A DNA stretch of 64,000 nt from Blasia pusilla (Eukaryota): assembly GCA_050084515.1 (NCBI GenBank), contig CM114271.1, positions 45,818,001-45,882,000 of the forward strand, read 5' to 3'. This document shows positions 4,231 to 49,720 of this stretch, piece after piece (position 1 is the stretch's first letter; the number at the start of each line of letters is the position of its first letter). The notes below the pieces were generated by a model that saw nothing but the letters and a program-made list of their open reading frames with translations, did not search any database and was not told the origin of the DNA. The position numbers and the translations under genes are program-made.

Positions 4231-4543
4231 TATTGAAGATTGAGTTATACTCAAGCTCATCAGACATCTGGATTGTTACGTTTGGTACTCACACGAAATA
4301 AGAAAGTTTAATCTTGATTAGTTAGTTAAGCACAATTATCTTAAATATGACTAGTTTATCATAGTTAGTCTAACTCGAGACTATGGTTAGGGTTAGGCTT
4401 TGGGTTGCTTGTACATACCTTATATAATTGAGAAGGCGATCAACCTCCACTCATTCTCTCTTTAAAAAATTTTGTTTTCCATAGTGGTGTGTGAGTGTGA
4501 GAATTGTTTCCCACTAGTTAAGCTTCTTTAACAATTTTCTACA
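4231..4543 (+). repeat. Copia 3' LTR
   Basis: Preceded by the PPT and followed by TSD AATGA. Confidence 0.9.
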
Positions 4544-17892: not shown

Positions 17893-18079
<187 letters not shown>

Positions 18080-19635
18080 TCTACTTATGAAGTTATGCAT
18101 GTTGTAGTCTTGCAGCCAAAGGCCCAAAGTAGACTGTCACATTTAGTATTAGTGCTTACCATAGATATAGAATGTTCATGGGTAGCTTCCATGTATTAAC
18201 CAAGAAACTCTTTACAATAGAGGAACGGAGCGTTAAACTAATGGTAAATAGTGTTATTTCCATCACGATGCTAAAGAAATGAGCACACTAAGAGTTCATA
18301 CGGTGAGGCATTCAACACAAAGAAGGAAGGGTAGCCAAAAATAGAATTGGAAGTTGTGAATCATGCAGACAATCGTCCGTCCTAGATATATAGTGTGGGC
18401 TAGACCTCTAGTTGATTAGATGGAATTGAGCCTAACTCTTTGGAAAAATCTGAATAAGGATTGTTGCTATTTCATTTGGTAGTACGAGTGGATAAGTGAA
18501 GAAGCTGCAGGCAACGTTCTCATTCATACAATCCTAATAATTAATAATAAAACAGTCACCCGTACTACTTCTGAGAAGCTGAACAAATTCTCATAGGAAT
18601 TCAATTCAGATGACCGGAAATCCACTTCTTCTTTTCTCCACAAGACTTTTGTCCATGATATTGCAAATCATGAGATTTGCAGACATGTAATTATGTAATC
18701 CTAGCAATAGCCGTAGGTCCACGTGAACATTTTGTTTGAATAGAGACGACATATTTTGGAACGAGAATCTAAGCAATCCCAGGTGTATAATCTCGACTCT
18801 CCCTTTCTCTCTGCTACGCATAAGGATAGCAAGGTTCATATGTATACCTACTTTAAAATGCTTCAAGTGAGCCCTGATCCTCACCGCAATACTTGTCTTA
18901 TGGCTGTGATCGAACATGCTAAGCTAGTAATATGAGTGTTGAGTGCATATTTGTTGCTAGTTAGCTACTACGACCAGTCTCATGCACTTAGCTACTACGA
19001 CTGGTCTCATAAAGGTAGATTTTTCGCGACTTATTCCTCCGATACACTAAACTTCCTTATAACGTGACATCTTATAGTCGTCATAATATCACTTTCTTTC
19101 CTAAGCTTTCCATCCGCCTTCCTAGTTATAGATGCACGTTCATCTGATATATCTCATCTTGTGGGGAGCCGCTAGGTTTTCATATATCTCATCTTGTGCT
19201 CGAATGGATTTTTCTGGACGACCGAGGGATTATGCGAAACATCGATAGTTTGGCGTGCACGCCCGTGGCAGCCGAACGTGAGAGCATTGACGTTTGGCCA
19301 ACAGATCCGTAATTTTCAATGTGTCTAAAAGTAAATGCGAACGGGCAGTACTTCAACGAAGCGGCTAGGATCGTCAAGTACGCGTCATGGTACATGGTAC
19401 CGTAGTTTTTACTTCACGATTTCCCCAAGATAAAGGTTATTTTGCCGTGCAAAGTACTGCGTCATTCTTACCCATTCATTTCTTCTACAGTCATTGAAAA
19501 TACAGATGGACTTTCTTCCATGTGGTCAAAGAAGAATTGCATTTAGAAGAGGGATGATTTGCATCACACAGCTATGGATGCCGTCTTCTCAAAGTTGCGG
19601 CAAAATGCGGTTCTAAAAAAATACGTTGCAAAAAA

Positions 19636-20337: not shown

Positions 20338-20586
<249 letters not shown>

Positions 20587-21223
20587 GCCTCAAGAAAATG
20601 TGGACCTTCCGTGATCTGCCTTGCTAATCCAGATCTTGAGATACCAAAATCATGCCGTGACACCACTTCAAATTGCGTGTGCGCCAATTATAAAGGAAAA
20701 TAAGCGCTCCTGCATTCAATAAGCTCCCATGTTGAATCAAAGAAGGAAGGCATGCAAATGTAGAAACGAAGGAAAGGAAAGCGCTCAAGAGAATAGAGGC
20801 ATGATACGTATACTCTCAAAGAAGAAACCAAGAAAATAAATGAGCATACCAACTGCCAGGCCACTCCCGATCACACTCTCCTACTACGCCACCACTCCTT
20901 GAGCGACAGAACCCAAAGAAATCAGGAGGTAGACTCGAGCCTCTTCCAATCACGCTCTCCTGCTGCACCACCACTCCCTGAGCTACAGAACCCAAAGTTG
21001 TGCACTTTGCTCGGAAGGGGCTTCAAGTCGCGGCTCAATTTTTGGCTCAAAGCTTGTCTCCGAAGACCAAAACCCTAAACCCAACGAACCCAACTCAAAT
21101 TGAGAGGGAAACTTGAAAGTAAGGACTCCCTTCTTCCCTCTAAAGCTTTTCCATAAAATTGATTTTTTTAGCTAGGAAAGCTAATTTTTGTAAAAAATCA
21201 ATTTAATATATGTAGATGTGACA

Positions 21224-21591
21224 TGTCATGACCATACGGATTATGTCGTAGAGTATAGTGTGCTAGTAGAGGCCATTCCTTATGTAGGACCGTAGTGGCT
21301 TGGTAGAGATGCGGTTCCATACATAGGGTTGGGGGTTACTCAATTGGGGGTGACTTTCCCAATAGGGCCCGCTCTTAGGTTGGAGGATATAAGGTGGAGT
21401 ACACTCAAAGAACAGTCAGTTCTTTGAGTTGAGCCTGTTGCGTTGGGAGTTAGCCTTGGTAGTGAGTAGAGCTCTTGGCTATGGTGTTTCCCGCAAGCTC
21501 CGACCTAGATTCTTCCATCATGGAGTGGGTTTGGCTCGATTGTATGTGATTGTATACGTGTTTTATGACAGTAGGTCTTTCACCGATTTCA
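21224..21591 (+). repeat. Terminal repeat A1 of Gypsy copy 1
   Basis: Matches 30325-30677 with about 6 substitutions and one 15-bp indel by eye; contains TATAA at 21388. Confidence 0.95.
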
Positions 21592-24500
21592 CTCAAAGAA
21601 CTGGAGTAGATCGATGGTAGCTTCGATTGACAGATCAAGAGGGATTTGGTTAGGGTGATTGTGTACTCAGCCGTGGATGTTCGTGGCTTGTGGCCTATGT
21701 TGGAGGTATGAATCTGGTGCGTGGTTGGTTGGGAAAGAAGCGCCTTGGTAAGAGCTTTCCAACGCGCTTTAGATCGCCAGATTTTGTCAAGGGAGTTGGA
21801 AGTTATCAAGGATTGAAGATTCTGGTTCGTGTTCAACGGTTTTCTGATGTGGAGAGCTTGGAGTGCGGAAGCTCTGTTGAAGTTCATCCAGATTGGGTGA
21901 GAGGTTCCTGTTGCTACTCGTATTGTGATCTCATGTGAATCTATCTGCTCGAGTGTGTGGAGCGTTGTGGATTTCTGCGTGCATGAAACTTGGCGGAAGC
22001 GCTGTCGGATAAGTGATTCTGGAGGTGTATGGACAACAAGTTTGTCTGATTTTTAGCTCGGAGTACAGAGCTCGGTTGTAGCTGATTTTTTGTGGAGAGA
22101 TAGCTATGGTGGTCAATTGAATTCTGGTTGAAACAGATTTGATTTCAGTCATAGATTTGTGAAGTAATTTCTGATCAAAATTTCGCGGACTAGCTCAAGG
22201 TATGGCTATGGTGGACAGCGGATCGGAGGGGTTGGTTGGTTGGTGACTCGTTCATTGTTGGAGACGCCTATCCCGTTGGGGGCGCCCTGGTTGGGCCTCT
22301 CTCCATAGCAAAGCATGGCAAAGCGTGGCGAACGGGGCGATAGAGGCTTCGAGGCAACTCGTGGTAGCTCGGGGTGAGTGGGCGTGAGAGGCGGAGTAAG
22401 GAGCAAGGAGCAAGCAAGCAAGCTTGCTTGCTTGGGCGTGAGGCAATTTTTGCAGGATTTGGGATTTGAGTGTTGCATAACTGGTCACCCATCTTTGGGC
22501 TATTCTGCCTGGAGGACGCTTAACTGCTGAGTTCTTAACTATGCCAGTGTACACACTGTTGTAGCTCATTTGGTGCTGTTCGGAGATGTGTTAGGCACTT
22601 TATGCATCTCAGGTTTTTGGTTGATGTACCTCTAGCTCATAGTACGGTGTAGCCTCTCCATGCAAGTGATATTTTCAGGTGCTGCGAGTTCGACTAGCAC
22701 GTCATCGACCCGCGGCGGAGTAGCTATTGCGTTAGAATTGTGTGGTGGGTTTTGTGGATTCATGGGGCACCACGTTTGGTGGATTATGTTACCTTGATTT
22801 CCATTTGCGATTGGAGGGTTGTCGTTGGACTTCCTGTGTTTGGATCCCCTCCATCGGTGCTTCTTGCTTGCGCGCCCATTGTTAGGGTTGACGCTGATTT
22901 CCAGAGTAGTGTTACTCCTGTGTGCTACTGATAGTGAGGCTGGAGTGATGACCAGTAGACCGTGGGAGGCTTCTTGTGGTGATGAGAGGTTAGGTTGCCT
23001 ACACCCATAGCTAGTAGAGCTACAATAGTAGAGCGACATCGACGTCACTTGGTTATTTGGTGGTGGTAATTTGGTGGTGGTGCGGCATCGGCATTGGTCA
23101 TCACGGAGCTGTCGGGTGGTCTGGTTGGGGACCGTGGTGCGGACAGTGGTGGTTTCACACGGAGTGGATTTAGGTATCGGCTACCTTTTCCACTTCCGAC
23201 GGTTGATGAAGAGGAGGACGAGGGTGTTCCAAACACCGAGTCTTCTACGTTGTTATCGAGTGTTGCAACTCCATTGATTTGGGACATGGACGGTGGATAT
23301 GGGGCCATGAAGGGCCCACGAAGATACTCGGGTGCAGTGGGTACCATTGAGTTGGAGGACTTCATGCAAGAGTTTGATACGTGGTGTGATATGCAGATGT
23401 TGTGGAACGCCACGTTGTTTACACCCTTCTTGGCTTGGAAGGGGTTGTTTCAGCACTTGGAAGGACCACCCATGGATGATTACCATGAGTTTAGGAAGGA
23501 CCATGTTGCTGAGATTGAGGCATGGAGACAATATTGGTCTCCAGGCTATGTGTCTATCACCCATGGTGGTATTGGTAGTAGTGCTCCTACTATGCCAGCC
23601 AGCCCGACGTTGAGTGGTACGAGTACGAGCCGGAGTGGAGGTACTAGTGGGGGTACTAGTGGAGGTACTAGTGCCCCACCATCGTTCAACTCGGTTGCAG
23701 AGTTCTTCAAGAGGTTGAAGAAGAACTATCAGGGAGTGAAGACGGAGAAGTTGAGGAATCTTCAGGAATTTGAGCGAAAGAGTGGTGAGAGTCTTCGTGA
23801 GGCATACACTCGTATGCGACGCTTGATTTCAGTTACCCAGGGTGTGACGAGGATCAGCGATCCGATTTTGGTATGGGATCTTGGACAGAGATTTGCGCCT
23901 TAGGGTACGTGATGCTACTCTTATGAGTGATGATTCACCCACATTGACCCATGTGTTTGCTCTATCTGAGAAGATTGAGCTTAACATGGTGAAGGAGAGA
24001 GTGGTGACATCCGCATTCAATAGGGATACATCTACTACTTCTCATGTTCAACCGCCCACCTCACAGTCTCGTAGTAGTGGTGGTGGTAGTAGTAGGGGGA
24101 GTCGTGGGGGGTACACACGACCTCATCCAAGTCCTAGAGGTACACTTGCGCAGAGACCATTGCCTTCATTTGCTACCCCGCAGCAAGGACAGTCATGTTG
24201 GACATGTGGAGGTGATCATGTTAGGAAGTTTTGTCCCCAAGAGGATGGGAGACGGACTTTGGAGGATGGGCCTCAGTCGGCCCCAACTCAGTGTGATCAT
24301 TTGCGGGAGACCAGGTCATCCTCGAGAGCGTTGCTTTGATCTTCATCCGTAGTTGAGATCAGGCCGCGGCCGTGGTGGAGTAGCTCGAGAGGTCGAGGTG
24401 GTAGAGGTGGACGGTGGTTGAGAGCCTCGGTGGCTACCCCTACCACTACGACAGAGTCGGCCTATGGTCGCCAGATTGAGTGATTGGAGCAGAAGTTGGC

Positions 24501-25909
24501 TACTATGGTCGGTATCCAAAGATAGATCACGTTCGGGAGCAGGAGCTTCCACCTCTTATGGAGGGGATGATCTCTCTTATATGGCGAGTGCATCACAGGT
24601 TGAGGCATCAGCTGCAGTTACGAGAGGAGCCACTCGAGCGTCAGAGCCACGTGGTGCTACTGTGGAGTTGGACCCACAAAGGGGTGAGGCTGGGAGGCAG
24701 GCTAGGCTTCCCTAGTCATTCTTGTTGTCTGAGGTGCTTAGGAATCCATCCATGGTTCCTACGCAGCCTATTGAGCCGACAGTGGGGACTGAGGCATCTA
24801 CATCGCGTGTAGTAGACACGGATGCAAAGATCAAAGGCAAAGATGTGCGGATGGCAACTTGATGTTGGGATCCCCATTGTTTTTGGCCACGGAGTCGATG
24901 GCTTTAGGAGTTGACTTAGCTCCTATATTTCAGCTAGCAGCCACATTGTGTGAACGTGGGGGTGTTACTGCTACACGTGTTGAGGTGGATGAGGATGTTG
25001 CGGTGGAGCGACCCTCTATGTCAGGTGTAGCATTGAGTACCAGTGCTACTTGGCAGGCAGCAGCGGCGAAGATGGATGCATTACCAGCCCGGCCAGCCAT
25101 TGATCGTGAGAGGCTTACACCTGGTGTATGTATGTTGGACAACAGTGGGATCTTCCGATTGGTGAGTCCTACAGACAGGTGTATAGACCGGATAGAGTCT
25201 TGTTAGACTCGGTGCTCAACCTTGATGTTGGGAAAGGCGGCATGTATTGGTTTGGGTATTCGGAGGTCGAGCTTGAGCCTTGCCCATTCCAGATTCAAAC
25301 ATCACTTGGAGGAGCCAATGATAGGTCTCAATTCATGACACGGGAAAAGTTTGTTTGCGGTTGAGACCAGATCATGCGATCGATAGCTCCCGGTTGGGAG
25401 TATCTCATGCGGAGTCACATAAGCCGAGTCGTATGATGTACTAGTTGGAGGAGCGATTGTACCCGATGGGTTTTCAGATGGATTATCGGATGGAGACAAC
25501 GTCTTCTTAGACCTGGTTGGCAGTCCGGGATGGACGTATGAGCCAAGTTCTTGTGAGATTTATTTATGGGGCTCGACCAGGAGGGTCTTCCCAACAAAGT
25601 GTTAGCATCTGTGGCTGGTTTTAGTGGAGTAGTCACTTGGCCGGAGACTTTTTGAGGGTAATGTTTTTTCTATGGATTCTCCTGCGCATGAGGAGGTAGA
25701 GGAGGTCCCTATTTTTGCAGCAAAGGGAATCCTCATCGTTGGATGTGCCACTTTGGAGTTCAGGCGGTGCACTACGGCAGGAGGCTTGGTGTGAGGCTAT
25801 TATACCTCACGAGGAAGAGGAGGCCCCACGGCGGACTCCTACTTCTGGTCCAGTTGGGTTATCCCCTTTGGATACTACACCCATTGTATGGTAGTATCCG
25901 CCGGAGGGC

Positions 25910-26740
25910 ATTTGTGTGTTAGATCTCTTTGGTGGGATTAGCACTGGTTTGGCTGCAGTGTTGCATGCCGGTATTCTTGTGCGGAGATACGTGTATGTGG
26001 AGCGAGATGAGACGGCCCAGTGAGTCTCATCCCGACATATTGGTCACTTGATCTAGATGGCCATGTCAAGGTCATACACGTGCTGGTCGTGGTGAGGGAT
26101 TACATGACCCTAGGTCTCGATTGTTTTGGGAGATGTTACGGGTGTTACGACATCTTCAGGTTCATCAGGCACGTGCTCTAGCTTACATTCTGGAGAATGT
26201 TCCATTGTTGGGTGACACTCGGACCCGGATGATGGCGAGTGTTCATGAGGTGCGGTCTTGATTGGACCAGCGGTGTTGTTGGATGCGTGAAGTTGGCTCG
26301 CGTGCACATCGCCCACGCTTGTGGTGGACAAACTTGTTGCTTAGGAGATTCTCGTCGAGCATATGATGTAGTGCAAGGGATCCTCGCTTACAGTGGATAG
26401 TATCTTGGATACTGGGCGACTTTCTCAAGTGGTAAGGGTTATTGATCGGTCACCCATGGCAATGGTGAACCGTGTGGGCCAGCCTAGGATGGCACTACCC
26501 ACATTTGTGAATTTTCCCTCGTCACATGCCTACAGGAAGGTGGTCCGGGGCTTGTATGGGATTCTCATGTGCGGCAGTTGGTGGAGCCTAACGCTGATAA
26601 GAGAGAGCGTGCGATGGGATTTGCTCTTTGGTGTGACAAATGGTTGCTTCTATTTCGAGGCTTCACGACGTCATGTGTTGGATCAGGCCATGGACCTGAA
26701 TTGTTTGACTTGGATTTTGAGTCTTGGTATGGCCGAGCAA
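25910..26740 (+). pseudogene. DNMT3-like C5 cytosine methyltransferase domain in Gypsy copy 1
   Basis: ICVLDLFGGISTG (motif I), YVERD (II), WPCQG at 26061 (IV), ILENV at 26193 (VI), HRPRLWWTNL (VIII), RERAMGF (IX), RRHVLDQAMD (X). Has an internal deletion and frameshifts. Confidence 0.88.
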
Positions 26741-29700
26741 GCGTCGACTTCGGACTATGTCGTGGGTCTTCCACCCTTGTAATGAGCTCGATGGCTACCG
26801 GGGACGGTAGAGGCATTGGTCAGGGGAGAGAGTAGTATTTTGCATCCTTGGAGTAAATGGGATGTAATGGCTGGGCATGTGGAGTTGGTTGCTCATGCTG
26901 GTGGAGGAGTTATTTGCTCAGATGATGGTGTAGCTAAGGGTGTACCATCTTGTAAGGGGGTTGCGTAGCAGCCAATGGCATCGTCCTCTCCCTCTAGTGT
27001 GCCAGTGGAGGAGACTTGGGAGCCATTACTTGGGCCCAAGCTTATAGGAGGTGAGAAACGACGCTTGACACAGTTCCTACGGGCTTATAGGAGTTGTTTT
27101 GCCTTTAGCATGAAGGAGTTGGGTTCTCTGGTTGGACCCGGTATACGGATTGATTTGGCTAGTGATACCCCAATCTTCCGTTTTCCCTACCGATATAGTG
27201 ATATGGAGAGGGACTTGATTAAGAGTAGGACGTTGGACCTTTTGGAGGCTGGATTAGTGGAGTTGTCGCATGGAGAGTATGCATTAGCCATTGTCATGCC
27301 TGCTAAAAAGGATATGCATAGCAACTACACGGATAGGCGGATGTGTGGAGATTACCGTCCTATCAATCGGCAAACCAAGGCTGATAAGTATGCATGCCTA
27401 CACCGAGGAGATCTTTGATGTGGTGGGACAGAAAAGATTTTCAGTATTTTGGATCTTGAGGGCAGATACCATCAATTTCCGATTCGGGAGAGTGACAAGG
27501 CCAAGACAAGATTTTGGGGTGTCAACTCATGGCAAGGATTGTTTGTACAGTGGAAATTCTTACCCTTTGGGTTGAAGAATGCACTTGCCGAGTTTCAAAG
27601 AGTGATGGACAGGATCCTAGTGTGGTTGGATTTTGTTCGGTGTTACATTGATGATATCTTGGTGTTCAAAGAACACGGTGGAGGAGCATCGATACATTTG
27701 CAGATGGTGTTTGAGCGGTTGAAAGCTCATGGTCTACGTTTGCATCCAAGAAAGTGTAAGTTCTTCCATGAGGATGTTGAGTACTTGGGTCATGAGATCT
27801 ATCCATGTGGTTTGGGAGTTCAGCAAGCAAAGGTGAAGGTAGATGTGAGTAGAGTTTGAGCATTCATGGGATTGGCGAACTACTATCGGAGGTATGTGAA
27901 AGGATTTAGTGCTATGGCAAAGCCTTTGAACCAATTGTTGAAATCAGATCAAGAGTGGCACTGGGGAGATGATCAGGAGAGAGCTTTTGTGGAGCTTAAG
28001 GCCCAGTTGGTGGCCGCGCCTATCTTGAGGAGACCTATCAGAGGGCGCCCATTTTAGTTACACACTGATTGGAGTAGGTTGGGACTTGGAGCGGTGTTGA
28101 CACAACATGATGATGAGCACATGGAGTTTGTGGTGGCCTATGCAAGTCGTTCGAATAATGCAGCAGAGTCGCGCTATAGTTCATATGAGGGAGAGTGCTT
28201 GGCAGTAGTGTGGGCTGTGGCACACTTTAGGTGTTACTTGTTTGGCACCCAGTTTATCCTTGTTACTGATCACCAACCGCTCAAGTGGTTGATGGAGTCG
28301 GACAAGCTTACAGGGAAGCTTGCACAATGGGCTCTTATCTTACAGGAGTATGACTTCCAGGTGGTACATAGAGACTGGAGTTGCCAACCTTGATGCCGAT
28401 GGGTTGAGTAGGAACCCATGTACTAGCCAAGAGGATACAATCGGGGCTAGATGGCATGGCGAGGTTGATGAGGAGATGGTGCCAGTTGGCATGCATCCGC
28501 CTTTTATGTTGGTTAGGGATGGACTCTAGTATGGAGGACCACATGATATCTTACTCTAGTCGAGGGTAGATGGCCACCTTCAGATCTTAAGGTTGAGATG
28601 GTGGTATGGATCAGCGTGATATTCATGATGATGCGTTAGTGTTGGAGTTCCTACGGACCAAGAGGGTGCCAGGCATAGTGAGTGCCAAGGAGCGAGACCG
28701 TGTTCTTCAACGTGCTAAGAGGTATCGATTGAGGGAACCCATATTCTCGCGTGTGGGAGGATGGTAGAGTACGAGTAGTGCCACATTTGGCTCAGAGAGA
28801 GCGCGACAGCGACATGCCCATGAGGAGTTGGGAAATTTTGGGTAAAGCGACGTAAAGCTTACTCCTTGGCCAAGACATTGGTGGCGTGGCATGCATACTC
28901 AGATGCAGCAGCTTGGTGTCACGTTGTATGGTTTGTGACCGGTGAGGGCATCATTTAATGCCCCTACACCACAATTACACCCTTGCCTATTATGGGGTTG
29001 GTTTACCGTTGGAGTGTGGACTTTTGCGGGACGTTACCGTTGATCGACATCATCATCGATATGTGTTGGTGATGGTGGAGCACTTCTCCAAGTGGATTGA
29101 GTTGGTGGCATTACGGGACAAGGCAAGTGAGGGAACGGCGTATGCATTTCTGGATAGAGTGCTTAGTCATTTTGGTGCACCAACCGAAGTCTTGACCGAC
29201 CAGGTCTGAGTTTGTGGTGAGTTTGGTCTTGTGTGACAAGGCGTTGATTGATCATCGGACCACATCTCGAGATCATCCAGAGGCGGATGGTTTGGCTGAG
29301 CGTGTGGTTCGAGGACGGTGAAGAGGGCATTGCGCAAGTATGGCCTCTGAAGGGCATCTTGAGACAGGATGTTCGGTTGCCATGGTTAGCCATGGGGTAT
29401 AGGGTTTAGTCGCCAAGCATCCTTGGCTTCCTTCTCACCTTATTTTTCTGTTATATGGCGAGATCTAGACTTGCCAAAAAGAATTGTCGGGGAGTCTAGT
29501 GAGGTGGTGAACCTTGATGACCCAGAGATGTGGATGAGGGTGTGTTCTCGGCGGAGCTCTTTCGAGAGTTATGCCACAACGGCCTTTGAGAATCTTGCCA
29601 TTGCTCAACACAAGGATACGTTTGCGGTATGCAACCATTCGAGGTGGAGGTTATCGACCATCGATTCAGAGGTTCCATGTGGGGACTATGTCTATTTGCA

Positions 29701-30216
29701 GCAGATTGCACCGACAACGTTGGATGTGACGCGCAGCCGCACTATTTTACGAAGTGCGCGAGGTGTTACCTTCCGGAGTTCTCATGTTGGAGGGTCGTGA
29801 TGGAGTTGTTTGGAAGGACCATGTGCGTAATTGTGCGCCATGTCATCTTCCAAATGTGGATGGTAATGTTGACCCAAGCTTAGCCATGATATTTGCTAGC
29901 TTGAGGTGCATGTTGTGTGGATCACTGGCAACGCCCGTATGTTGGTGTGTGATCGGTGTTCTAGGGGTTGGCACATGATGTGTTTGACTCCACGTATGGA
30001 TGTTGTTCCTAGTGGAAGGTGGGTTTGTCCTCGATGTACTTAAGAGAGGTAGATGACTTGATCTTTGCATGATATGGATTACAGATGTGCGACTAACGAT
30101 GGGGCAACCTAGCACCCGGCCTTCTGATTCGGGCACCCAAGAAGGTGTATAGCATGTAGTAGATGTATAGGGCTACCTGGGAGTTAGAGGGACCTAACCG
30201 CAAATTAGGGGGGCGA

Positions 30217-30783
30217 GTTGTGGTACACTTGTGTTTGTGGATACTCTCGTCTATGTTATGTATGTATGTGAGTATGGTATGTCAGCAATGTATGTTGTAT
30301 GACGATGTGGATTTGCACGACAACTGTCATGACCATACGGATTATGTCGTAGAGTATAGTGTGCTAGTAGAGGCCATTCCTTATGTAGGACCGTAGTGGC
30401 TTGGTAGAGATGCGGTTCCATACATAGGGTTGGGGGTGACTTTCCCAATAGGGCCCGATCTTAGGTTGGAGGATATAAGGTGGAGTGCACTCAAAGAACA
30501 GTCAGTTCTTTGAGTTGAGCCTGTTGCGTTGGGAGTTAGCCTTGGTAGTGAGTAGAGCTCTTGGCTATGGTGTTTCCCGCAAGCTTTGACCTAGATTCTT
30601 CCATCGTGGAGTGGGTTTGGCTCGATTGTATGTGATTGTATACGTGTTTTATGACAGTAGGTCTTTCACGGATTTCAGTTGTGGTACACTTGTGTTTGTG
30701 GATACTCTCGTCTATGTTATGTATGTATGTGAGTATGGTATGTCAGCGATGTATGTTGTATGACGATGTGGATTCGCACGACA
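30217..30783 (+). repeat. 3' terminal block of Gypsy copy 1: B1 (30217-30322), AC spacer, A2 (30325-30677), B2 (30678-30783)
   Basis: B1 and B2 are 106-bp direct repeats with 2 differences seen; A2 repeats A1. Confidence 0.95.
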
Positions 30784-33679
30784 GACATGTATAAACCCTA
30801 TCTTATCTTAAAATCTTTGGTGGAAGGAAGACTAATAAAAAAGACCCTATTGTTCTTATAAGAGTTTGATGGAATAAATTATGCCCTATTGTTCTTCCAC
30901 AAAACTTAATAAGTCTTCCGAGGGACGCAATTAAAAAACCCCTAACTTTTTCGCACGTGATGGGGCATTTGTGTGGAAGTGAGACCCCCGAGGACCCTCA
31001 AAACCAAATGAACACCAAATATGTGCCAAACGGAACATCAAAAATCTAGTGGACTCACACTACGATAATCGCGTTTTGGAGAGGCTTTTGGAAAGGTCTC
31101 TTGGTAAAGTCCAAAAGACGAAACGCGGAATAGAGTTGTGCATTTCATGTGTTTGTGGTTGCAACCAGGAAACTTGGACCAAACGTGAACCAAGACTTGA
31201 GATGAGTTGAGTCTTGGAAGGTTGGTTGCCATAGAGGTGAGAATCAATTTTCGAACACGACTAGTGTTTGGGGATTTTGATTGCGTTTTGGACCATAAAA
31301 TTTAGTCCCAAGATGTATTCGGAACAAATAAATACGCGTTGGAAAGCTTATATTGAGACGCTTCCAACACACCAAAAACCTCATCAAACGCATAAGTACA
31401 AGCTGAGATATCGGCCAAAAACAATTGTGAGAGCAATCGGGTTGAGGGCCAATCTGGGGGGGCCCAACTGTCTTTCCCTAAAGTTAGGGGGAGGGCGGGG
31501 ATCCCCAGAAGTACTAGTACTGGGAGTCTCTCCAAGGATTCTTGGAACACGAACCCCACTTTGAGCACCAAACGGCGTCTGAAGGGCACGGGATGGAACG
31601 GGAGTTTGGCGTTAGAACTCGAAACCCAAACTTGATGCAAGGGAGTGGACTTCGTAAGCCACACTTGGATTCCAACCCGCGATTCATTTTTGTGACTTGC
31701 GAGTAGGGACTCATTGGATGTCCATTGGACAATTGGAACCGCCAAGCATTCAAACTCCATTTGAGGTTCCTCAACTGACATAAATTTTGTCCCAAGTCTT
31801 CAAAGACTTGCATGTGTTGTAAACCGCGAAATTAGGAAGGTTGAGCTTGATGAGAGGCCGAGTCAAGAACTCGGCAAGTTAGAACCGCTGATTGATCCAG
31901 ACCTGACTAATGTGAGTGCGTGTTTGGATGCAGATCAACGTTGAGAGCGTGTCCTACTAAATGCATGCTTCCGCAACAACGAAGATTAACGTTCAAGGAG
32001 AATAGACCCACAACATAAGGTGACTTGGCAAAAAAAATCATTTTTTTGTCCTAGTCTTTGATGGGTTTAACTAAAGACTTCCTTGGACTGTAGGAACTTT
32101 TCCACTTTTTCCAATGTGAATTTATTTGTTGAACTTCAAGTTTGTTATTATCTTCTACTTATTGGTGATGGTAGTTGATGTTACTTGATCTACACTTGAA
32201 TATCATCATATGTCAATAAATGATACTTGAAGAAACTAATTATTGGTGTTGATAATTGATATATCTCTTCATTTGAATATCACCTTGCAATCAACAAGCT
32301 TAATTATATTAAAGAGGTAAGACTCTTAACGCAAGACTCTAGATATGAAATTTGCCTCAAAACTCTTTTATTGAAATGAAAATATGCAATAAAGTTTTTG
32401 ATCCAACTTGCTTGTTCATACTAGACTATGGTAGTAAATGTGATTGTATTGTCATGTTTTCCACAAAGCCTTCACCAAAGGCTGAAAAATTAACCTTAAC
32501 GTACCATACATCAAAAGTGGACCCTCGCCGAAGTCCTTAAAAAGTACCTCCCTCCCAAGCTGTAAATGGAGCTCTTCTATATAGATATTTGGCTAACAAA
32601 ATTTTCAGGAGCATTAAAACAAGGATGCTAAAATTGGCTAGTAAAGCTTGCCCCAACAAACTTAAGTATTCACAACTAAAAAATTTACATCATAATTTTT
32701 TTCAAGAAGGGAAATGATCAATAAATTCCTACATGTAAATATTCATAAAATAATAATTGCTCTCACTAGTGATATCATGTTACAAAAATTATACCCTCAT
32801 TCTCGAGTGAAATTAGGTGCCTATTAGGTACTCATGCAATGCATGAGAGAGGTACACGTAACTAGCCCCCAATCTATCCCCACGGCTCTAATTGACCCCA
32901 GATTTACCCGACAAACTCCGAACCGACCCCTAACTTGATTGACGTCATAATTGACTCTAAATCACCAAGAACACATGTTAAACGTGAGTGGGTAAAAATA
33001 TGAGATGTCAACGGGAGAAGAGTTTTGGAAAATTAAAGGGAACTTTGCAATAATAATATAGATCATATGTCAAGAATATTGTAATTTCCTTCTTACGGAG
33101 CTTAGAGGAAAACCATTGTCCTCGGATCCCATGGACCTCAACCCTTCGGGCTCATGGTTAGAACAACCATACCGACATTGAGACACTGCATGTGGAATTC
33201 CACTTCACATTCAAATGGGTCTCTTCCCCTCATGCCATCATTTTCCCTGTCGGTTTCTCGATAAAGCGTAACTAGAAAGAGGAGGTATAAGGACTTGCAC
33301 CATGCCTCCTCAGGTCCCATTTGATGCGCGTAGAAAAAAAAATAGACCATAGGGTCAGACGTCAAAATCCCTAATTTCTATATGATCAAATTCGGTCCTC
33401 GAATGCGGAGTGCCCGGGAGGTGGCTGCACACACTCTAAACTCCAGAATCTAATAATATTAAACTTTCTTTTATGTAAATAGAAGTCATCCATATTCAAA
33501 CACTAGAGGACTATTCAAATTTTAAAAAGCCCTCTTCCTCCTTTCCCTTCTTCATTTAATTGTGTCCTCTTACTTGAACTCCTCTTCTTAAAGTGATATG
33601 TGTCAAAACCAAAAGAACTCTTAGAAGACATGTGTCGACGCATGAAGTTTCTTTTAACTCATCTTCTTTTAATTTTTTA

Positions 33680-39416: not shown

Positions 39417-40177
39417 TGTCGTGCACATACACATCGCTACATAACATACATCGTTGTCATCGAACACACACAAACACACACGATCCCATGCTGACTCATG
39501 GCATCCATACACAGAGGCGAGAAGCACCAAAATATCTCCAATCTGTAAAGTAAGATCCAATCTCTCTGTACACCATCTCACACCATAGCATTCAAAGATG
39601 TGCACTATCTCTCATGTCAAACCAAACTCATTCTCCTAATAAAAGGCTTGGGTTACACTCACAAGGCAAGGAACCATAGGTCCGCCGCCTCATGCCAAGA
39701 GGTTCAACAAAGAGAGAATGAGCTCCCAAGTTCTCTTTCCTTGAGGTATACCCCTCCCCTCTCCCAAGCTCTCTCCATGGTAACCTATTCTCCCAAGTCA
39801 CCTCTTTGGCTCTTGACCTGATGTAGGAGGTCAAGGGCCACTTACCAAAAATAAAAAGTCGATCATATATTGAGAATGGTACTTACCTAAAATAGTAAGT
39901 TTCTAAATATGGTCCAAATGAGCCGAAATGAAGGGGAAACCTGCTCTCTCAGGTTTCCTTGGGCCTCAACACGCCATCCTCGAATTCATAGGCCTGTCCT
40001 CCACTACTCGTGCAGACGCTTTGCTAAATCCCACCGATATATCCTAACAATCGTGGCAGCTGTCGTGCGCATACACATCCCTACACAACATACATCGCTG
40101 TCATCGAACACACACGATCCCATCCTAACTCATGGCATCCATACACAAAGGCGAGAAGTACCAAAATATCTCCAATC
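39417..40177 (-). repeat. 3' terminal block of Gypsy copy 2: B1 (40177-40061), GC spacer, A (40058-39544), B2 (39543-39417)
   Basis: 39417-39543 and 40061-40177 are direct repeats differing by a 10-bp indel and substitutions; the element ends GCACGACA. Confidence 0.92.
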
Positions 40178-43100
40178 GCCCCCTAGTTGGTGGTTAGGTC
40201 ACTCTAACTCCAGATAGCCATCTATCCCTACCTACCACGACATACATCTCTAGGACGCTAAGAGCAGAAAGGCCGGGTGCTCATGTGGCCCCATTGTTAG
40301 TCGCCTTCATGTCATCCATGTCACAGAAAAAGTCGGAATCGAAACCTACCTAGTTTCTCCTCTATGTACATGTGGGACACATCCATCGTCCCCGAGGAAC
40401 CCTAGTGAGAGGTGGCGTCAGACATGCCATATGCCAACCTCTCGAACATCCATCATAGACTAGCATCGTGGCCGCACCACGAGCATAACCACACAACATA
40501 CAACGCAAGCTTGCAGGAACTACTACTAAGCTTGGATCTATTGCACCATCAATGTTAGGAAGGTGACATGGCGCACAATTACGCACATAGTCCTTCCATA
40601 CCATACCATCGCGTCCCTCCAGCAAGAGAGCACCGGATGGCAAAACGTCACGCACTCTCAGGATAGTGCGCCTTGTAGTCACATCCAACGTCGTCGATGC
40701 CGTCTGCTGTAAGTAGACATAATCTCCTTGATGAAACCTCCGGATAGTTGGTCGATAATCACACCCCGAATAGTCGCATACCTCAACGTATCCCAATGCT
40801 GCGCAATCGCCAAGTTCTCGAACGCCATGGACATCACTCTCTGAAACAACTCAGCCCTTTGAGAACATGCTCGCATCCATACATCTGGGTCATCAAGGTC
40901 TAACACCTCACCAGCATCTCGACGAATGGCCGTAGGTAAATCTGGCTCTCGGCCATAAAGTAGCAAGTACGGTGAAAAAGATGCTAAGGATGTCTGTCTG
41001 CTGAATATGTATCCCATTTGCCAACCATGGCAACTGGAGGTCCCAATCTCCTAGGTGACCTCTCTGCAAGGTCTTCACCATCTGCACAACTCTCTCCACT
41101 AATCCATCCGCCTCGGGATGATCTCGCGAAGTCGTGCGGTGGTTGATCAACGGCTGATCACACAAGGCCTGGAACTCACCGCGAAACTCGGTACCCTGGT
41201 CTGTCAACACCTCAGCCGGTGCGCCATAATGTCTCAACACTCTATCAAGGAAGGCATAAGCCACTCCCTCACTTGCTTTGTCAGGCAATGTAACCAACTC
41301 GATCCACTTCGAGAAGTGCTCGACCATCACCAACACATAACGACTGTGATGTTCTGTCAAAGGAAAAGGTCCTGCAAAATCCAAACTCCATCTATATCCT
41401 AAGCCCATGATCGGTAATTGATGCAACTGTGGAGTCGGAGCATTGAACGATACTTGGACCCGATCACACACCATGCACTTGGCAACAAACTGGTGAACGT
41501 CAGTCTGCATGCCTCGCCACCAATACTTAATCTGGAGCAAGCTGTACGTCTGCTTCACCCCAAAGTGACCCAACTCCTGGTGGGCATGCTGCACTAGTTG
41601 TGCTCTCTGCAAAGGATGCAGCACTACGCATACTCTACCATCCTCCCAAACCCTCAAAACATGTGTCCCCTCCAAACGGAACTGTCTGGCCCGTTGTAGG
41701 ATCCAATCCCGCTCTCTAGCACCCACGGTGCTTGCAACGCTACCAATACAAAGGTACTCCAAGACTACTCCATCATCATGAATATCTCAGCCACCTGTGG
41801 TCTCCTCACTGGCCTCGGGATCCAAGGACTCTCCACTAGACCTCGCCATCGAAGTCTCCACACTTTGGCTCTCCATAGCCAACATGCCTAAATAGGCTGA
41901 CGCGTGCCATCCTGGCACCAACTCCTCATCACTCTCTCCATGCCATCGAGCTCTAGTCACATCTTGCTGACTCGGGCATGGGTTACGACTCAACCCATCT
42001 GCATCTTGGTTGAGCGTCCGAGGTCTATGTACCACCTGAAAATCATACTCCCGCAACAACAGAGCCCATCTCGCAAGCTTCCATGTAAGCTTGTCGGACT
42101 CCATCAACCACTTGAGTGGTTGATAATCAGTGATGATGGTAAAGGGGTTTCTGAATAAGTAACACATGAAATGCGCGACAACTTACACCGCAGCCAAGCA
42201 CTCACCCTCATACAAGTTGTACTTCGCCTCTGCAGCGTTGTTCGAGTGGCTAGCGTAAGCCACCACGAACTCTCTACCCTCATCATCATGCTGGGTGAGC
42301 ACCGCTCCAAGCCCTAACATGCTCCAATCTATGTGCAATTGGAAAGGACGCCCCCTGATCGGTCTCCTCAAGATGGGTGCAGACGTCAACCTGTCCTTGA
42401 GCAATTGAAATGCTCGCTCTTGCTCATCCCCTCAGTGCCACTCGTGATCCACTTTGGTCAGCAAGGTCAGCGGCTTCTCAATCGAACTAAATCCCTTGAT
42501 GTACCACCGATAGAAGTTCGCCAATCCCATGAATGCGCGAACACGGCTCACATCTGTAGGGCGTGGAATGCGTGAGATAGCCTCTACCTTCGTTTGATGA
42601 ATACCAAGGCCCCCTGGGTATATCGTATAACCCAAGTACTCAATCTGGTCGTAGAAGAACTTGCACTTGCCTGGATGTAGCTTCAGCCCATGTAATTGCA
42701 ATCGTCAAAACACCTCCTCTAGATGTCGCTCATGCTCCTCAACCGTGGCGCTAAAGACTACGATGTCATCAATATAACACCTAACAAAATCCAGACTAGC
42801 CAAGATCCTATCCATGACCCTCTGAAACTCAGCCGAGGCCTTCTTTAACCCAAATGGTAAGAACCGCCACTAGTACAAACAATCCTTCCCGTGAGGATCG
42901 ATGCCCCAAAATGTTGTCTTTTGCTTGTCCTCCAATCTGATTGGCAGCTGATGGTATCTGGCTCGCAAATCCAATGAATTGAAGATCTTTGCCTGACCAA
43001 TCGCATCAAAGATCTCCTCACGGGTGAGCATGGCATACCTATCGGACTTTGTCTACCGATTGATAGGTCGATAATCTCCACACATCCGCCTATCCGTCCA

Positions 43101-43724
43101 GTTGCCATGCACATCCTTCTTAGCGGCCATAATAGTGGCAGATGCATACTCCCCATACGACATCTCCACTAGTCCTGCTCCAACCAAGTCCTGGCTCCTA
43201 CTCTGAATCAAAGCCCTCTCCATATCACTGTACCTGTAGGGTCGTCCGAAGATCGGTGTATCACTCGACAACTCAATGCGGATCCCCGGTCCCTTTAGCG
43301 TACCCAAATCCTCCATGGTAAACGCAAAGCAGCTCCTATAACTCTTGAGGAACTGATGTATTTGGCGCCGCTCTCCTCCTGTCAACTTAGGGCCCATATT
43401 TGGCTCCCAAGTCTCCATCGTGACTACGGTAGGACTCTCCACCGCGGGTATCGGTGGTTGCTATGGTGCAACCCCGTCTCGAACAACAACAATCGGCCTC
43501 TCTCCGGCAGCCAATTGTAAACTCTGATCTCCTCCACGTGGAGTGCCCGTAACCACGCTCGATGCTGTGGCTATCATCTCTTGGCGTACCTGCAAAACAT
43601 CCCAAGAAGTCCAAGGGTGTCTCTCTCGATCTCCCCTAGTGTGTAGATCTCTTCAGGTCTCGTCCCCAACCACTACTTCCACCATCTCGGTAGGCATGGA
43701 GCCCACCAATGCAATCCCTATGAT

Positions 43725-44710
43725 CTATCGCGATCTCATACGACGCTGCTCAACCATTCCCAAGCTGAGGATCCATGTCAAGTAGTTCAGGTCCATTGCT
43801 TGACCCAAGACATGGCGTCGTGATGCCTCTGACAGTGACGATACTGCCGTCACTCCTGGGGGAAATCCCATCGCTCGCTCTCTCTCGTCGGCGTTGGGCT
43901 CCACCAACCGCTAAACCTGGTCATCCCAAACCAAGCCAAGATCGGCCTCCTTGTATGCATAGGAAGCGGGAAAACTCACAAACGTGGGCAAGGCTACCTG
44001 CGGCTTGCCTACCCTGTTGACCACAGTCAACGGTGGTTGATCATCGTGCCTCACTGCCTATGAGCAATGATCAGGATCCAAAATAGAATCCACTAACAAA
44101 TGGGAGGGGCGCTCCACTCTCGCATACGCCCTCCGTAACACCGCATCGGGCACCAAGTTGGTCCACCATAGACGCGGGCGATGGGTTGTAGAACCTACAC
44201 TCGCCGCGTCCAAGAACACTGCTGGGCCAATCCAGGCACGCACCTGATGAGCACTCGTCACCATCCGTGACCTGGAGTCTCCTAAGATCGTCACATTCTC
44301 CAGAATGTAGGTTGGAGAATGAGACTGGTACTCCTGCAACTACCGTAAGACCCTCAACATCTCCCAAAATAACATGGATCGAGTGTCAACCAACCCACTG
44401 CTTTGTCCAGCACTCGATTGGCCTTGACATGGCCAATCGGAAATGACCAAATAAATGGTGCCTAACCGGTCTAAGTCCTGTGTCCCCAGCAATGAAATAT
44501 CCCTCGGTAGGGAACTATGGTACCCTTGTACCGCGGACGCAGACAATAAGTCAGGAAAACATAGGCATAACTGCGCCACATGTCATAGTGAGACGCGTCT
44601 CGCAACATCATCTCTCTCCACATACACGTGCTGCTGCACTCGCACTCATGCCTACAAAACAGCAGCTAACCCGGTGCTAATCCCTCCAAAGAGATCTAAC
44701 ACTCCAATAT
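43725..44710 (-). pseudogene. DNMT3-like C5 cytosine methyltransferase domain in Gypsy copy 2
   Basis: IGVLDLFGGISTGLAAV, YVERD, DWPCQGQS (44424-44432), YILENV (44292-44300), HRPRLWWTNL, ERERAMGFPPG, RRHVLGQAMD; one frame interrupted by stops. Confidence 0.92.
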
Positions 44711-45310
44711 CCTCCTTCGGGATACACCACACAATGGGTGTGGTATCCAAGGGTATCATCGTAACACTCCCTGCTACCTCGGGTTCCTCAGACATGTCAC
44801 GCTCCGGTGCAAACGCCTCGCTCCACACGATCTGCACGTGCTCATCTGCCAATCGTCGAAGCTCCTCAGTCGAGCCCCACAACGGAACCTCTCCTCCACG
44901 GAATGATGCGGCTACCTTAACACTCCTCTCTATAGAAATGTCAGGAACTGGAGTATCCTCTGCATGGACATGTCCCTCAATCAAATCACTGGGCCAAGTG
45001 ATGGCACTGCTAAGGTCGCCATCTCTCCTGGCCGTTGCTCGATCACTGCACCTCTGAATCAAACGGGTAATGAGCTAAGACGCCCATCATCTGACTGCCA
45101 TCCTGGTCTGTAGGACGCTGACTCCTCCCAATAATCCAATGAAAATCCCATCGAATATAACACTGCTCTACTAACCAAGACGTCGTAGGAGTCTGCATCA
45201 GTCACTATCGCCTTGGCTCGCACCACGGACTCATCTGTAGGATGTCCCAAGCGAATCTTCACCACGACCTCCTGTCGGGTGATATATTGTGTGGTACTCG
45301 CTCCACCCAA

Positions 45311-45516: not shown

Positions 45517-46029
45517 TTAGGGACTGACACATCCATATAGGCTCGACTATCTCCATCTTGCATCCGGGCTAGCCTTGCCCGCATTCCCAAACCCAATCTT
45601 GATTGTGCACTGCACCCCTCCCTCCTCTGGGTTGCATCCCTCATGCAACCTCGACACGCATCCATCCCCTGTAGGAGGGGCGTAGGCAAGATGTGCGCGG
45701 GATGCCTTGGTAGGGTGTGGGCAGACAACCGCCGACATGGGAGTTAGGTTTTCTTATTATTATTTTTTCATTTTTTAGAATAAGAAATATTTTCTTAAAA
45801 AATAAATTACAAAATTCCCATGTATTGCGTGTACCGATAGGATGTAGGCAGGGTTCGAGTTACATGGGTCCGCACCCCACTTGTATCCCTCTTGCATCTG
45901 GCGTGCATAGGAAAGGTGCAAGCCAAATGCTAAAGGGATCTAGGCAGGGGTTGCAATAGAGAAGTGGGCTACATGAGGCATGGTGCAAGAACATGTGCAG
46001 AATGACATTTTCGAACTAGTTCAGAAAAG

Positions 46030-47462
46030 TCCGTCCCATGGATTGACAAGTCCATTTTTGTGCAACCTTGGGTAAATCCCAATTGCAATGTACAAAAATA
46101 TTGTTAAAGAAAAGATGAGCTACTTCCAACACCGTAACAATATTTTAGTTAGAAGGAAAACTCCCATCTTAGAAAATCAATCTACCACTACCATGTTTGA
46201 GTTAAATCCTTTCAATTCAAGTAATCCTATGGTAAAATCCATAGCAATACTTTCCCATCGTCCACATGGAATTGGCAAAGGTTGAAGAAGGCTCGATGCT
46301 TGCCATAATTTGTTTGGTTCTTTTAGCAAACCAAACACACTTTATGGTATCCTTGTCTTGAGATGGCTTGTAGGAATATTTCTAAAGAATATCTAAGGTT
46401 GATACTTGACTTGGATGTCCCACATGAGGTGCATCATGATGAACCTTAAGAACCTTTATCTTTTAACTCTCAAAAAATATATATCCTTTTTTCTTGAGTT
46501 TAGTGTTCCATTTTACAATACCATCCACAAGTACAATGCGTCTCACGCTTGCCCCCTTCTTCAGAGCTCCTAACCATCCTTGGGCCATTTCATCGAGTTG
46601 GCAAGCCACCTTCTCCAAGTTTCTCGAATTGATTTCCAACACCCAAGTTCCTCTCAAATATTTCTCTTGCCTACTCAAGGCATCAACTATCATATTTTCC
46701 TTGCTTGCTTTATAAAAAAATTCCATATCGAATCTTGCTAGGTATTCTTGCCAATAGACTCATTTTGATAATAGCTTCTCCTAACTCGAAAAATACTTGA
46801 AAATGATATTGTCGGTGTAAACCTTGAAGTGTGGACTATGAAACAAGTATACTTGCCACTTCTTGAGGCAATGAATTACCACATACATCTCCCTTTCATG
46901 ATCATGAGTTATCTAGTTGTTCTCTAACTTGGTTGACTCGTAAGAAATTGGTCAACCTGCTTGTTTCAACACTCATCTAATCACAAAGATAGATGCATGG
47001 TTCCAAACTTCAAATGGGATCCCGATTTCTGACAACTTGAGTACATGAGGGTCGCTTATTAGAAACTCTAATTTCTGAAATACCTCTTCACACTCCTAAG
47101 ACCATTAGAAAAATGTTGCTTTCAGTGTTAAGTCATAGTGTAGTTTAGCAATCTTGGAAAAATACTAGATGTATCTTCTATAGAAAGTGACAAATCCAAC
47201 AAATGACCATCTTTCGGTCAAATTCCTTGGCGTTGGCCATAACTTAATAGCCTCAAGCTTATCATGGCTAGGTCGTATGCCCAAAATTTTCAATGTGTGT
47301 CCCTAGAATTCCATGAGGAATTCCATTTCTTGGACCATGAAGCAATGCTTAGAAAATTTCATGAAAAGTTTGTTCTTCCTCAAACGCACCAAGACTTCTT
47401 TGGGGAGAACCTTGTGTTTCTCTTGGATCTTCAAATATATAAGTATGTCATCAAAGAACATC
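46030..47462 (-). mobile_element. Decayed fragment of an unrelated, conventional Gypsy pol (RT end, RNase H, integrase start)
   Basis: VFFDDILIY (~47430-47460), YKASKENMIVDALSR, HDAPHVGHP, RWESIAMDF; many stops. Confidence 0.8.

Positions 47463-49024: not shown

Positions 49025-49026
<2 letters not shown>

Positions 49027-49064
<38 letters not shown>
49027..49064. repeat. (GA)19 microsatellite
   Basis: Perfect dinucleotide run. Confidence 0.95.
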
Positions 49065-49069
<5 letters not shown>

Positions 49070-49720
49070 GTTCCATATACCATTAGAAATATTTTGGTAC
49101 ATGATTGTCTATATGTATAGATGGCATGAGTGGGTATTTTTATTTTATTTTTATGTATGTGTGGATGGTGACATCGATATATATTGTGTAGCGATGTTTA
49201 TGTCCACTATAGGTATTCTAACATGGATAGAAGTGCGGTACTACTTTTGGGTGTGGAGAGAGATGAGAAAATATGGTCATGTTAATCTTGATGTGTTGGT
49301 TTGGCATCATTGGCTCATCTTACCAATTTTAGGAGCGTGGTTTTTTATGAGCTTGTATGGAATATATTCCATGATTGAGTAGAGGTGGAACATGCAAGTG
49401 GAAGTGTAGTCAAGATGTTAGTTGCAAATGGTTGTTTGTGAGGAACAATGGTCTAAGGCATTCTTGATGTCAATCTTGGGTGTGCTTCCTTTGGGTGATG
49501 GCTATCCTAGATGTATAGTATGCTACATGATCAATTGTCATCACAAGTGGGCAACTAACAATTGAGCAAGTCACCATCCAATCTCTTGATCTTCTCACCA
49601 AAAATATGCATATAATTTTAAATGGGTCGGCTGACTACCTAGAGTTGGAAAGACCTAACCATTAGCTCGAGGAGGGGGATTGTGTGTCCCTTTAACATCT
49701 GCATGATGATGTGTACTTAT

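Follow-up and report, generated by a model that had tools for sequence, protein, structure and literature searches.

How is reverse transcription primed in a retrotransposon whose left terminal repeat is not followed by a tRNA-type primer binding site (PBS)? The question is raised by an element in a 64-kb stretch of DNA from Blasia pusilla (64,000 nucleotides; contig CM114271.1 of assembly GCA_050084515.1, positions 45,818,001 to 45,882,000, forward strand). We refer to this whole stretch as the window and to the element as copy 1, or W. The integrated layout of copy 1 is A1-PBS-genes-PPT-B1-A2-B2, where A and B are repeats and PPT is a polypurine tract; the left end is an A repeat alone and the right end is B-A-B. 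The initial annotation of the window had proposed that the element primes like Tf1 of fission yeast, with the 5' end of its own RNA. Complementarity found by comparison in three subfamilies supports that proposal, with the transcription start placed by its distance from a TATA box. We conclude that the site at 21591-21603 is probably the minus-strand PBS of a Ty3/gypsy-type family that primes with its own RNA.

Repeat A1 (TG...CA, 368 nucleotides (nt)) occupies 21224-21591 on the plus strand, to which all copy 1 coordinates refer, and is 94.3% identical to A2 over 368 nt. It includes a TATAA box at 21388-21392 that could be aligned in relatives. The predicted first 12 nt of the RNA, AGTTCTTTGAGT (21418-21429), lie 30 nt past TATAA; they are complementary to 21591-21602 and would form the self-primer. 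The putative PBS, ACTCAAAGAACTG (21591-21603), is the exact 13-nt reverse complement of CAGTTCTTTGAGT (21417-21429), which makes the pairing in copy 1 one base longer than 12 nt, reaching C21417. Base 21591 is the final A of the CA that ends A1, and the PBS therefore adjoins the repeat end. When the sequence was re-read, the 13-nt complement and the coordinates given in the initial annotation for TATAA, the second copy of the site in a hairpin arm and the site itself all proved exact. Its observation that no TGG-type PBS follows A1 also held, as the first TGG is 11 nt past the A1 end, in a stretch that is not conserved in relatives.

The match between the PBS and the start site is beyond chance. 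None of 1984 random 18-nt segments of the window sequence had a 13-nt reverse-complement match in A1, and the longest such match was 10 nt. With up to one mismatch allowed, the 12-mer occurs five times in the 64 kb where 0.64 occurrences are expected, and none of 100 shuffles reached five. All five occurrences are accounted for by the hairpin arms in A1 and A2 and the site that follows A1.

For comparison beyond copy 1 and a second copy in the window, copy 2, we took 80 metagenome loci (L-numbers) that encode relatives of the integrase and sorted them by repeat sequence into three diverged subfamilies. Some rows are duplicates: L035 and L036 are the same locus, as are L075 and L076 and also L038 and L032, and L010 equals L013. 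The 5' junction, meaning A1 and the sequence that follows it, was present in 12 rows, with L009 left out as a 99% duplicate of L008.

In each subfamily, the 12 nt adjoining the A end pair with a site 29-32 nt past a TATA box. The putative PBS of copy 1 is found at the same site in L008, L010, L018, L019 and L022. In subfamily 1 the 12 nt after A are ACTCAAAGAACT and the site is AGTTCTTTGAGT, and the full pair is present in W, L008, L010 and L019. The subfamily-1 site is 30-31 nt past the TATA box GGTATAAAG in W, L010 and L019. The box could be aligned in subfamily 2 and in five of the seven relatives from subfamily 1; at its position L022 has GGTATAGG and both L008 and L009 have GGTATGAAG, though L008 shares the subfamily-1 site. 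The complementarity has decayed to 10 nt in L018 and L022. In subfamily 2 the site is AGTTTTTCTAGA, 32 nt past GTATAAAAGG, and the 12 nt after A are TCTAGAAAAACT; the pairing is 12-13 nt long in L080 and 11 nt in L076. In subfamily 3 the 12 nt after A1 are ATCACCAAAAGT (L038/L032), and these pair at 12/12 positions with ACTTTTGGTGAT, which lies approximately 30 nt past GGGATATAATCCC in A repeats of L040 and of the element on the minus strand of L076.

Between subfamilies 1 and 2, 4/12 positions of the 12-mer are different, each with a compensating change. When eight sequences from these two subfamilies were folded together with RNAalifold, the terminal helix was predicted with both-sided changes at 2/10 pairs, the other two compensated positions being hidden by alignment gaps. 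The repeats of subfamily 2 could not be aligned with those of subfamily 1, and in the blastn searches run the A and B repeats of the three subfamilies had no cross-matches except in the last ~45-65 nt of B, where the single pair compared, copy 1 and copy 2, is 75-84% identical. Complementarity of at least 10 nt was found at 8/12 5' junctions. In a null of approximately 1900-2000 random windows per locus, this was reached 0-1 times for seven of the junctions and 14/1932 times for that of L022. In most copies the complementarity begins, on its 5' side, at the predicted start, and TGG was found neither at nor next to the A end in any of the three subfamilies. The PBS and the 5' site had been expected to covary in other subfamilies, and they do, the sequences differing and the complementarity being kept in all three. 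As the two sides covary across subfamilies, the comparison shows selection for the pairing.

Folding of the predicted leader, from the start to 30 nt past the PBS, paired nt 1-12 with the PBS in the minimum-energy structure of 5/6 elements. The summed pair probability was 10.65-10.84 of 11, and 3.8 in L076, which has a changed PBS. The start site itself is associated with a hairpin. Its left arm in A1, ACTCAAAGAAC (21403-21413), lies upstream of the predicted start and is near-identical to the PBS, and the corresponding hairpin over the start site, already described in the initial annotation, has 11 bp and a predicted energy of -16 kcal/mol in the A2 copy. In subfamilies 1 and 3 the predicted start falls in the loop or right arm of a 9-11 bp hairpin (-10 to -16 kcal/mol), and thus only the 3' copy of the site would be sequestered. 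Folding of the subfamily-2 site showed none (about -2 kcal/mol). That the 3' copy is masked, as the initial annotation had suggested, is therefore possible where the hairpin is predicted, in subfamilies 1 and 3, but is not a general requirement.

In Tf1 the primer is 11 nt long and is released by an RNase H cut. On the same model, transcription of the Blasia element would start approximately 30 nt past the TATA box in A, near A21418, and the first 11-12 nt of the RNA would fold back on the site directly after A1, closing a domain of approximately 170 nt. Once RNase H had cut behind the duplex, the 3' end so released would be extended, and plus-strand synthesis would be primed by the PPT before B1. 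We observed the complementarity, its position and its compensated conservation, and predicted the fold from sequence; from these we infer where transcription starts, that RNase H cuts and that priming takes place. Self-priming is supported because a selected pairing adjoins the repeat end and begins at the start predicted from the TATA box, and because there is no adjacent TGG; features of this kind are those from which self-priming has been inferred in other elements.

Self-priming is established for Tf1 and has been proposed for Tj1 (PMC4600332). The PBS of Tf1 and Tf2 (Schizosaccharomyces pombe) and of Tj1 (S. japonicus) immediately follows the 5' repeat and complements the 5' end of the element's own mRNA (PMC4600332), as is predicted here, and the primer length is similar. 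The family differs from these fungal elements in residing in a bryophyte-type plant, in having a PHD finger and not a chromodomain at the integrase end, in its A...B-A-B layout in place of two equal long terminal repeats (LTRs), and in being known from sequence alone. Among plants, a survey of LTR elements predicted self-priming for 12% of them, in the lineages Tcn1 and TAR (PMC6317226). The evidence for Tcn1 (Ty3/gypsy, mosses and club-mosses) and TAR (Ty1/copia) is of the same in silico type and likewise concerns non-seed plants (PMC6317226), but Tcn1 elements have chromodomains and ordinary LTRs whereas this family has a PHD finger and split repeats. The available part of that survey (Neumann et al. 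2019, PMC6317226) does not mention 'PHD', 'Marchantia' or 'liverwort'.

The alternative that survives best, though we consider it unlikely, is that the pairing is a functional long-range RNA interaction for packaging, translation control or strand transfer, formed either as a 5' panhandle or by cyclisation of the RNA through the post-A1 site and the copy of the site within A2, and that some other primer is used. The covariation shows selection for pairing, not for priming; the site occurs twice in a read-through RNA; and the A...B-A-B layout shows that replication leaves the textbook route. On the other hand, the paired site adjoins the A end in all three subfamilies, the position required of a minus-strand primer, there is no adjacent TGG as another candidate PBS, and the 5' edge of the complementarity matches the predicted start in most copies. 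It is more improbable still that the primer at the post-A1 site is a host RNA, such as a tRNA half, an internal tRNA segment or some other small RNA, and that the similarity to A is secondary. Priming by half tRNAs and internal tRNA regions is known in Ty1/copia lineages (PMC6317226), and our scan for tRNA genes reached only the window and 42 loci. However, there are three different 12-mers, each matched by the A repeat of its own subfamily at the same distance from the TATA box, and this explanation would need three host RNAs, each copied into a repeat; here too, no TGG is present. The least probable alternative is that part of the A palindrome was duplicated beside A1 and was kept by common descent as a functionless by-product, for although the subfamily-1 PBS is near-identical to the left hairpin arm in A and the core common to all subfamily-1 copies is inherited, subfamily 2 has neither hairpin nor left arm and still has a 12-nt complement of another sequence, and the pairing persists though the subfamily repeats lack blastn cross-matches (the B end of the one pair excepted); subfamily 2 and the RNAalifold covariation already disfavour it.

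Several observations weigh against self-priming. The RNA 5' end is placed only by its distance of 29-32 nt from the TATA box, and contigs of three RNA-like runs are short pieces of both strands in which no transcript end can be resolved. The fold of the 204-nt leader of W is modest, with z = -1.9 and 7/200 shuffles folding as well. The core is invariant in subfamily 1, and the covariation comes from three lineages, not from many events. In subfamily 3 the two sides of the pairing come from separate copies, with a single independent 5' junction (L038/L032), and in the A1 of that locus (L038 4215-4489, L032 1968-2244) the loop of the start-site hairpin is inverted, reading CCAAAGT for CTTTTGG, so that it holds a direct copy of the PBS and not its complement. 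A 16-nt deletion has removed the 5' site from L015, and the pairing in L050 (subfamily 2) has decayed to 9 nt. The comparison with host RNAs was confined to a scan for tRNA genes, which found none in the 64-kb window and none in the 42/80 loci scanned. Finally, textbook replication yields (B-A)...(B-A) where A...B-A-B is observed, and at least one step of the cycle therefore lies outside the textbook scheme. These points are included in our view of self-priming as the probable reading.

The layout itself is well defined in copy 1. The polypurine tract AGGGGGGCGA (30207-30216), which is kept before B1 in relatives, adjoins repeat B1 (30217-30322), which ends in ...CACGACA and is 98% identical to B2. 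A 2-nt spacer, AC (30323-30324), lies within a conserved junction, CACGACA-NN-TGTCATG, and is followed by A2 (30325-30677, delimited by comparison with A1) and B2 (30678-30783). B2 is the right terminus, again ...CACGACA, as placed by repeat comparison and by a joint in contigs of the empty site. The whole, from A1 to B2, is a single insertion, flanked by the target-site duplication GACA on the left (21220-21223) and right (30784-30787), seen both in the sequence and in the empty-site contigs. In contigs of a DNA run, X1, 21214-21220 is joined straight to 30784-30785 at three joints, one of which (21220 to 30785) has six shared letters. As this run holds both the empty and the filled target site, either the insertion is polymorphic or an unfilled paralogue exists.

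W, L008, L022, L010 and L015 are flanked by perfect 4-bp target duplications; in L076 and L019, 3/4 letters match. The imperfect inverted termini TGTCATG...CACGACA and the internal junction CACGACA-NN-TGTCATG are kept in all subfamilies and also in L025/L026 and L069. As the 4-bp duplications, the ends and the junction are conserved in this way, the family is integrase-driven, with its integrase sites where A begins and where B ends. Two equal LTRs at the ends, as in Ty3/gypsy elements, were found neither in the window nor in the relatives with a PPT-B-A-B right end. This arrangement was present in nine rows of subfamily 1 (window included), 16 of subfamily 2 and five of subfamily 3, some of them duplicate loci. 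An integrase-encoding family with split direct repeats shows that such repeats are not tied to tyrosine recombinases.

The PPT adjoins the start of B and the PBS adjoins the end of A. With priming sites in these positions, textbook reverse transcription gives (B-A)-PBS-genes-PPT-(B-A), and the A2/B2 junction is exactly where the two predicted DNA 5' ends would meet if joined blunt. The integrated form is a circular permutation of (B-A)...(B-A), inserted by a DDE integrase at TGTCATG...CACGACA, and we propose that it was opened at the B/A palindrome. In full, this reading describes a bryophyte clade of Ty3/gypsy elements with PHD-finger integrases and the layout A1-[genes]-B1-A2-B2, its repeat borders set by the PPT and the self-priming PBS: a permuted LTR element, formed when a cDNA that resembles a 2-LTR circle, or one produced by end-to-end jumping, is opened by the integrase at CACGACA-NN-TGTCATG. 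We offer this tentatively, with slightly more doubt than confidence. A 2-LTR circle opened at random at either B/A junction is not sufficient, as it predicts an A-B-A-PBS-...-B form that was not seen; B was found upstream of A1 at 0/7 subfamily-1 and 0/3 subfamily-2 5' ends.

The A2/B2 junction varies in some copies. In L016 (approximately 2670-2692) it contains a 20-nt insert made up of a partial repeat of the A end and the last letters of the PPT (CGAG), which resembles a scar left when the junction formed. At the subfamily-2 junctions (L042, L049, L053, L056, L060, L063, L064, L066, L067, L068, L071, L074-L077 and L079) the A end varies (...TTCAAT, ...TTCA, ...TTCAA or a 17-nt duplication), and the rest of A has few indels. 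The variable ends could have arisen through re-formation of the junction or through slippage in an AT-rich run. Together with the L016 scar they hint that the A2/B2 junction is sometimes re-made, whereas its constancy within subfamily 1 argues for inheritance.

A form with a single B after the PPT, lacking A2-B2, makes up a third to half of copies. It was found in 10 subfamily-1 rows (nine distinct: L003, L010 (equal to L013), L014, L015, L017, L019, L023, L024 and L051) and in nine subfamily-2 rows (L047, L050, L052, L054, L055, L058, L059, L061 and L065). Two of these, L010 and L015, have a single B and yet are flanked by perfect 4-bp duplications (TGTT and TACA, respectively). The single-B form derives either from recombination between B1 and B2 or from direct insertion of a non-redundant form. 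In the more distant relatives L069 and L045 no clear second B was found.

Copy 1 is, judging by its domain matches, a degenerate Ty3/gypsy-type retrotransposon. It is a dead relic with many stop codons, and its longest stop-to-stop frame is 277 amino acids. Its gene remnants sit between A1 and A2 in the order gag (weak), reverse transcriptase, RNase H and rve. They comprise a gag remnant with a CCHC knuckle (23070-24339; weak Retrotrans_gag match, E-value 0.0014, under Pfam's cut-off), a reverse transcriptase remnant (27419-27859; RVT_1, E-value 2.3e-24), an RNase H remnant (28058-28393; RT_RNaseH, E-value 2.1e-35) and an integrase core remnant (28946-29209; rve, E-value 2.4e-8). The pol order in the family, reverse transcriptase, RNase H and integrase (H2C2 + rve), is that of Ty3/gypsy elements. 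Among 120 listed proteins, the integrase relatives are 43-74% identical and come from liverworts (Riccia, Calypogeia), Sphagnum, Klebsormidium, Closterium and chlorophytes. Most of the 120 include a PHD finger (PF00628), and eight include a cytosine methyltransferase domain (PF00145), which was not found in the window copies. The tyrosine recombinase domain PF00589 was found in 0/120 listed relatives and in 0/6 proteins scanned, and the non-coding-looking parts of copy 1 were scanned in part. There was no chromodomain match, and copy 2 and proteins P0006, P0037 and P0040 have a PHD finger at the integrase C-terminus.

Copy 2 belongs to a diverged subfamily and is 5'-truncated (39417-45153, minus strand; B2 39417-39543, A2 39545-40060, B1 40061-40177, then the PPT and pol). 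Its pol has 71% nucleotide identity to that of copy 1, and its 3' end is also B1-A2-B2, with an A sequence unrelated to that of copy 1. It retains a 292-amino-acid integrase frame (Integrase_H2C2 + rve), and next to this, at the position of the chromovirus chromodomain, comes a PHD finger (within 40362-40850, minus strand, E-value 6.2e-9). The initial annotation had described a similar start-site layout at 39750-39711 (minus strand). The TCATTC motif is present there with an imperfect hairpin, but GGTATACC stands in place of TATAA. The 5' end of copy 2 was lost to another insertion, and with it the PBS that could have been compared. A search of the window for the expected PBS, CAAAGAGAGAAT, returned only the site itself (39708-39719). 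Two further matches with one mismatch each lie elsewhere and are at chance level, as 7/100 shuffles reach three.

Other repeats are scattered through the window. A retroelement fragment at approximately 46000-47500 (minus strand), similar by eye to reverse transcriptase/RNase H, interrupts copy 2 upstream of 45300. Repeat comparison identified a third, diverged A-B fragment at 48817-49207 (plus strand). At 49646-49690 (plus strand) a B-like start accompanies a fourth PPT-like tract, GGAGGGGGA, and tandem repeats of ~210 bp follow at 49736-50390. A pair of direct repeats (79-345 and 4269-4538), 4.19 kb apart and 82-83% identical, is possibly an older LTR pair. Repeats with a period of approximately 1 kb are found at 59325-61173, and long (AG)n microsatellites at 17893-18080 and 20341-20586.

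Split direct repeats in an integrase-encoding Ty3/gypsy family are a more unusual feature than self-priming. The layout A1-[ORFs]-B1A2B2, where ORF denotes open reading frame, is known from Ngaro, PAT/Toc and other DIRS-type elements (PMC8547959, PMC4157794, PMC5890265), and this family shares it. A tyrosine recombinase is found in such elements 'instead of the rve-INT' (PMC8547959, PMC4157794). In contrast, this family has Integrase_H2C2 + rve and no detectable recombinase, and it differs further from Ngaro and PAT in its 4-bp target duplications and imperfect inverted ends, TGTCATG...CACGACA. AB repeats without an element occur among Ngaro and PAT, and the fragment at 48817-49207 of the window may be one. 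The 1988 description of TOC1 from Chlamydomonas reinhardtii was reportedly titled 'a transposon with an unusual arrangement of long terminal repeats', and the layout of TOC1 is A-int-B-A-B. TOC1 has been classed as a non-autonomous DIRS element (PMC9940879); it is, like this family, a green-lineage retroelement, but it does not encode an integrase.

Members of the same integrase family (43-74% identity) include KnitGypsy-Dnmt3 of Klebsormidium and other green-lineage PHD-finger Ty3/gypsy elements. KnitGypsy-Dnmt3 was described as an LTR Gypsy element (PMC5890265), and unlike it the window copies are without a methyltransferase. Neither a split-repeat layout nor a self-priming PBS is mentioned for green-lineage PHD-finger elements in the available part of that paper (PMC5890265). 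No integrase-encoding element with split direct repeats was found in the full-text literature available in part, which is weak evidence of absence. A precedent for opening at the B/A junction is integrase cleavage of the palindromic junction of 2-LTR circles, in foamy virus and by HIV-1 integrase in vitro (PMC1180852, PMC1905944). There too a DDE integrase cuts an internal CA-nn-TG palindrome resembling the conserved B/A junction described here. The viral palindrome consists of joined LTR ends, whereas that of this family lies inside the unit delimited by PPT and PBS, and here only one of the two possible permutations was found.

Self-priming, should it operate here, would extend to a further plant lineage a mechanism demonstrated in fission yeast and earlier predicted for Tcn1 and TAR. 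Annotation is affected as well: LTR finders built around a pair of equal repeats will overlook such elements or misplace their boundaries. The borders of the split repeats coincide with both priming sites of an LTR-type cycle, which makes the origin of DIRS/Ngaro-type termini testable. If the permuted-LTR reading is true, it would link the LTR and DIRS/Ngaro architectures and provide a sequence-level handle on the origin of split repeats.

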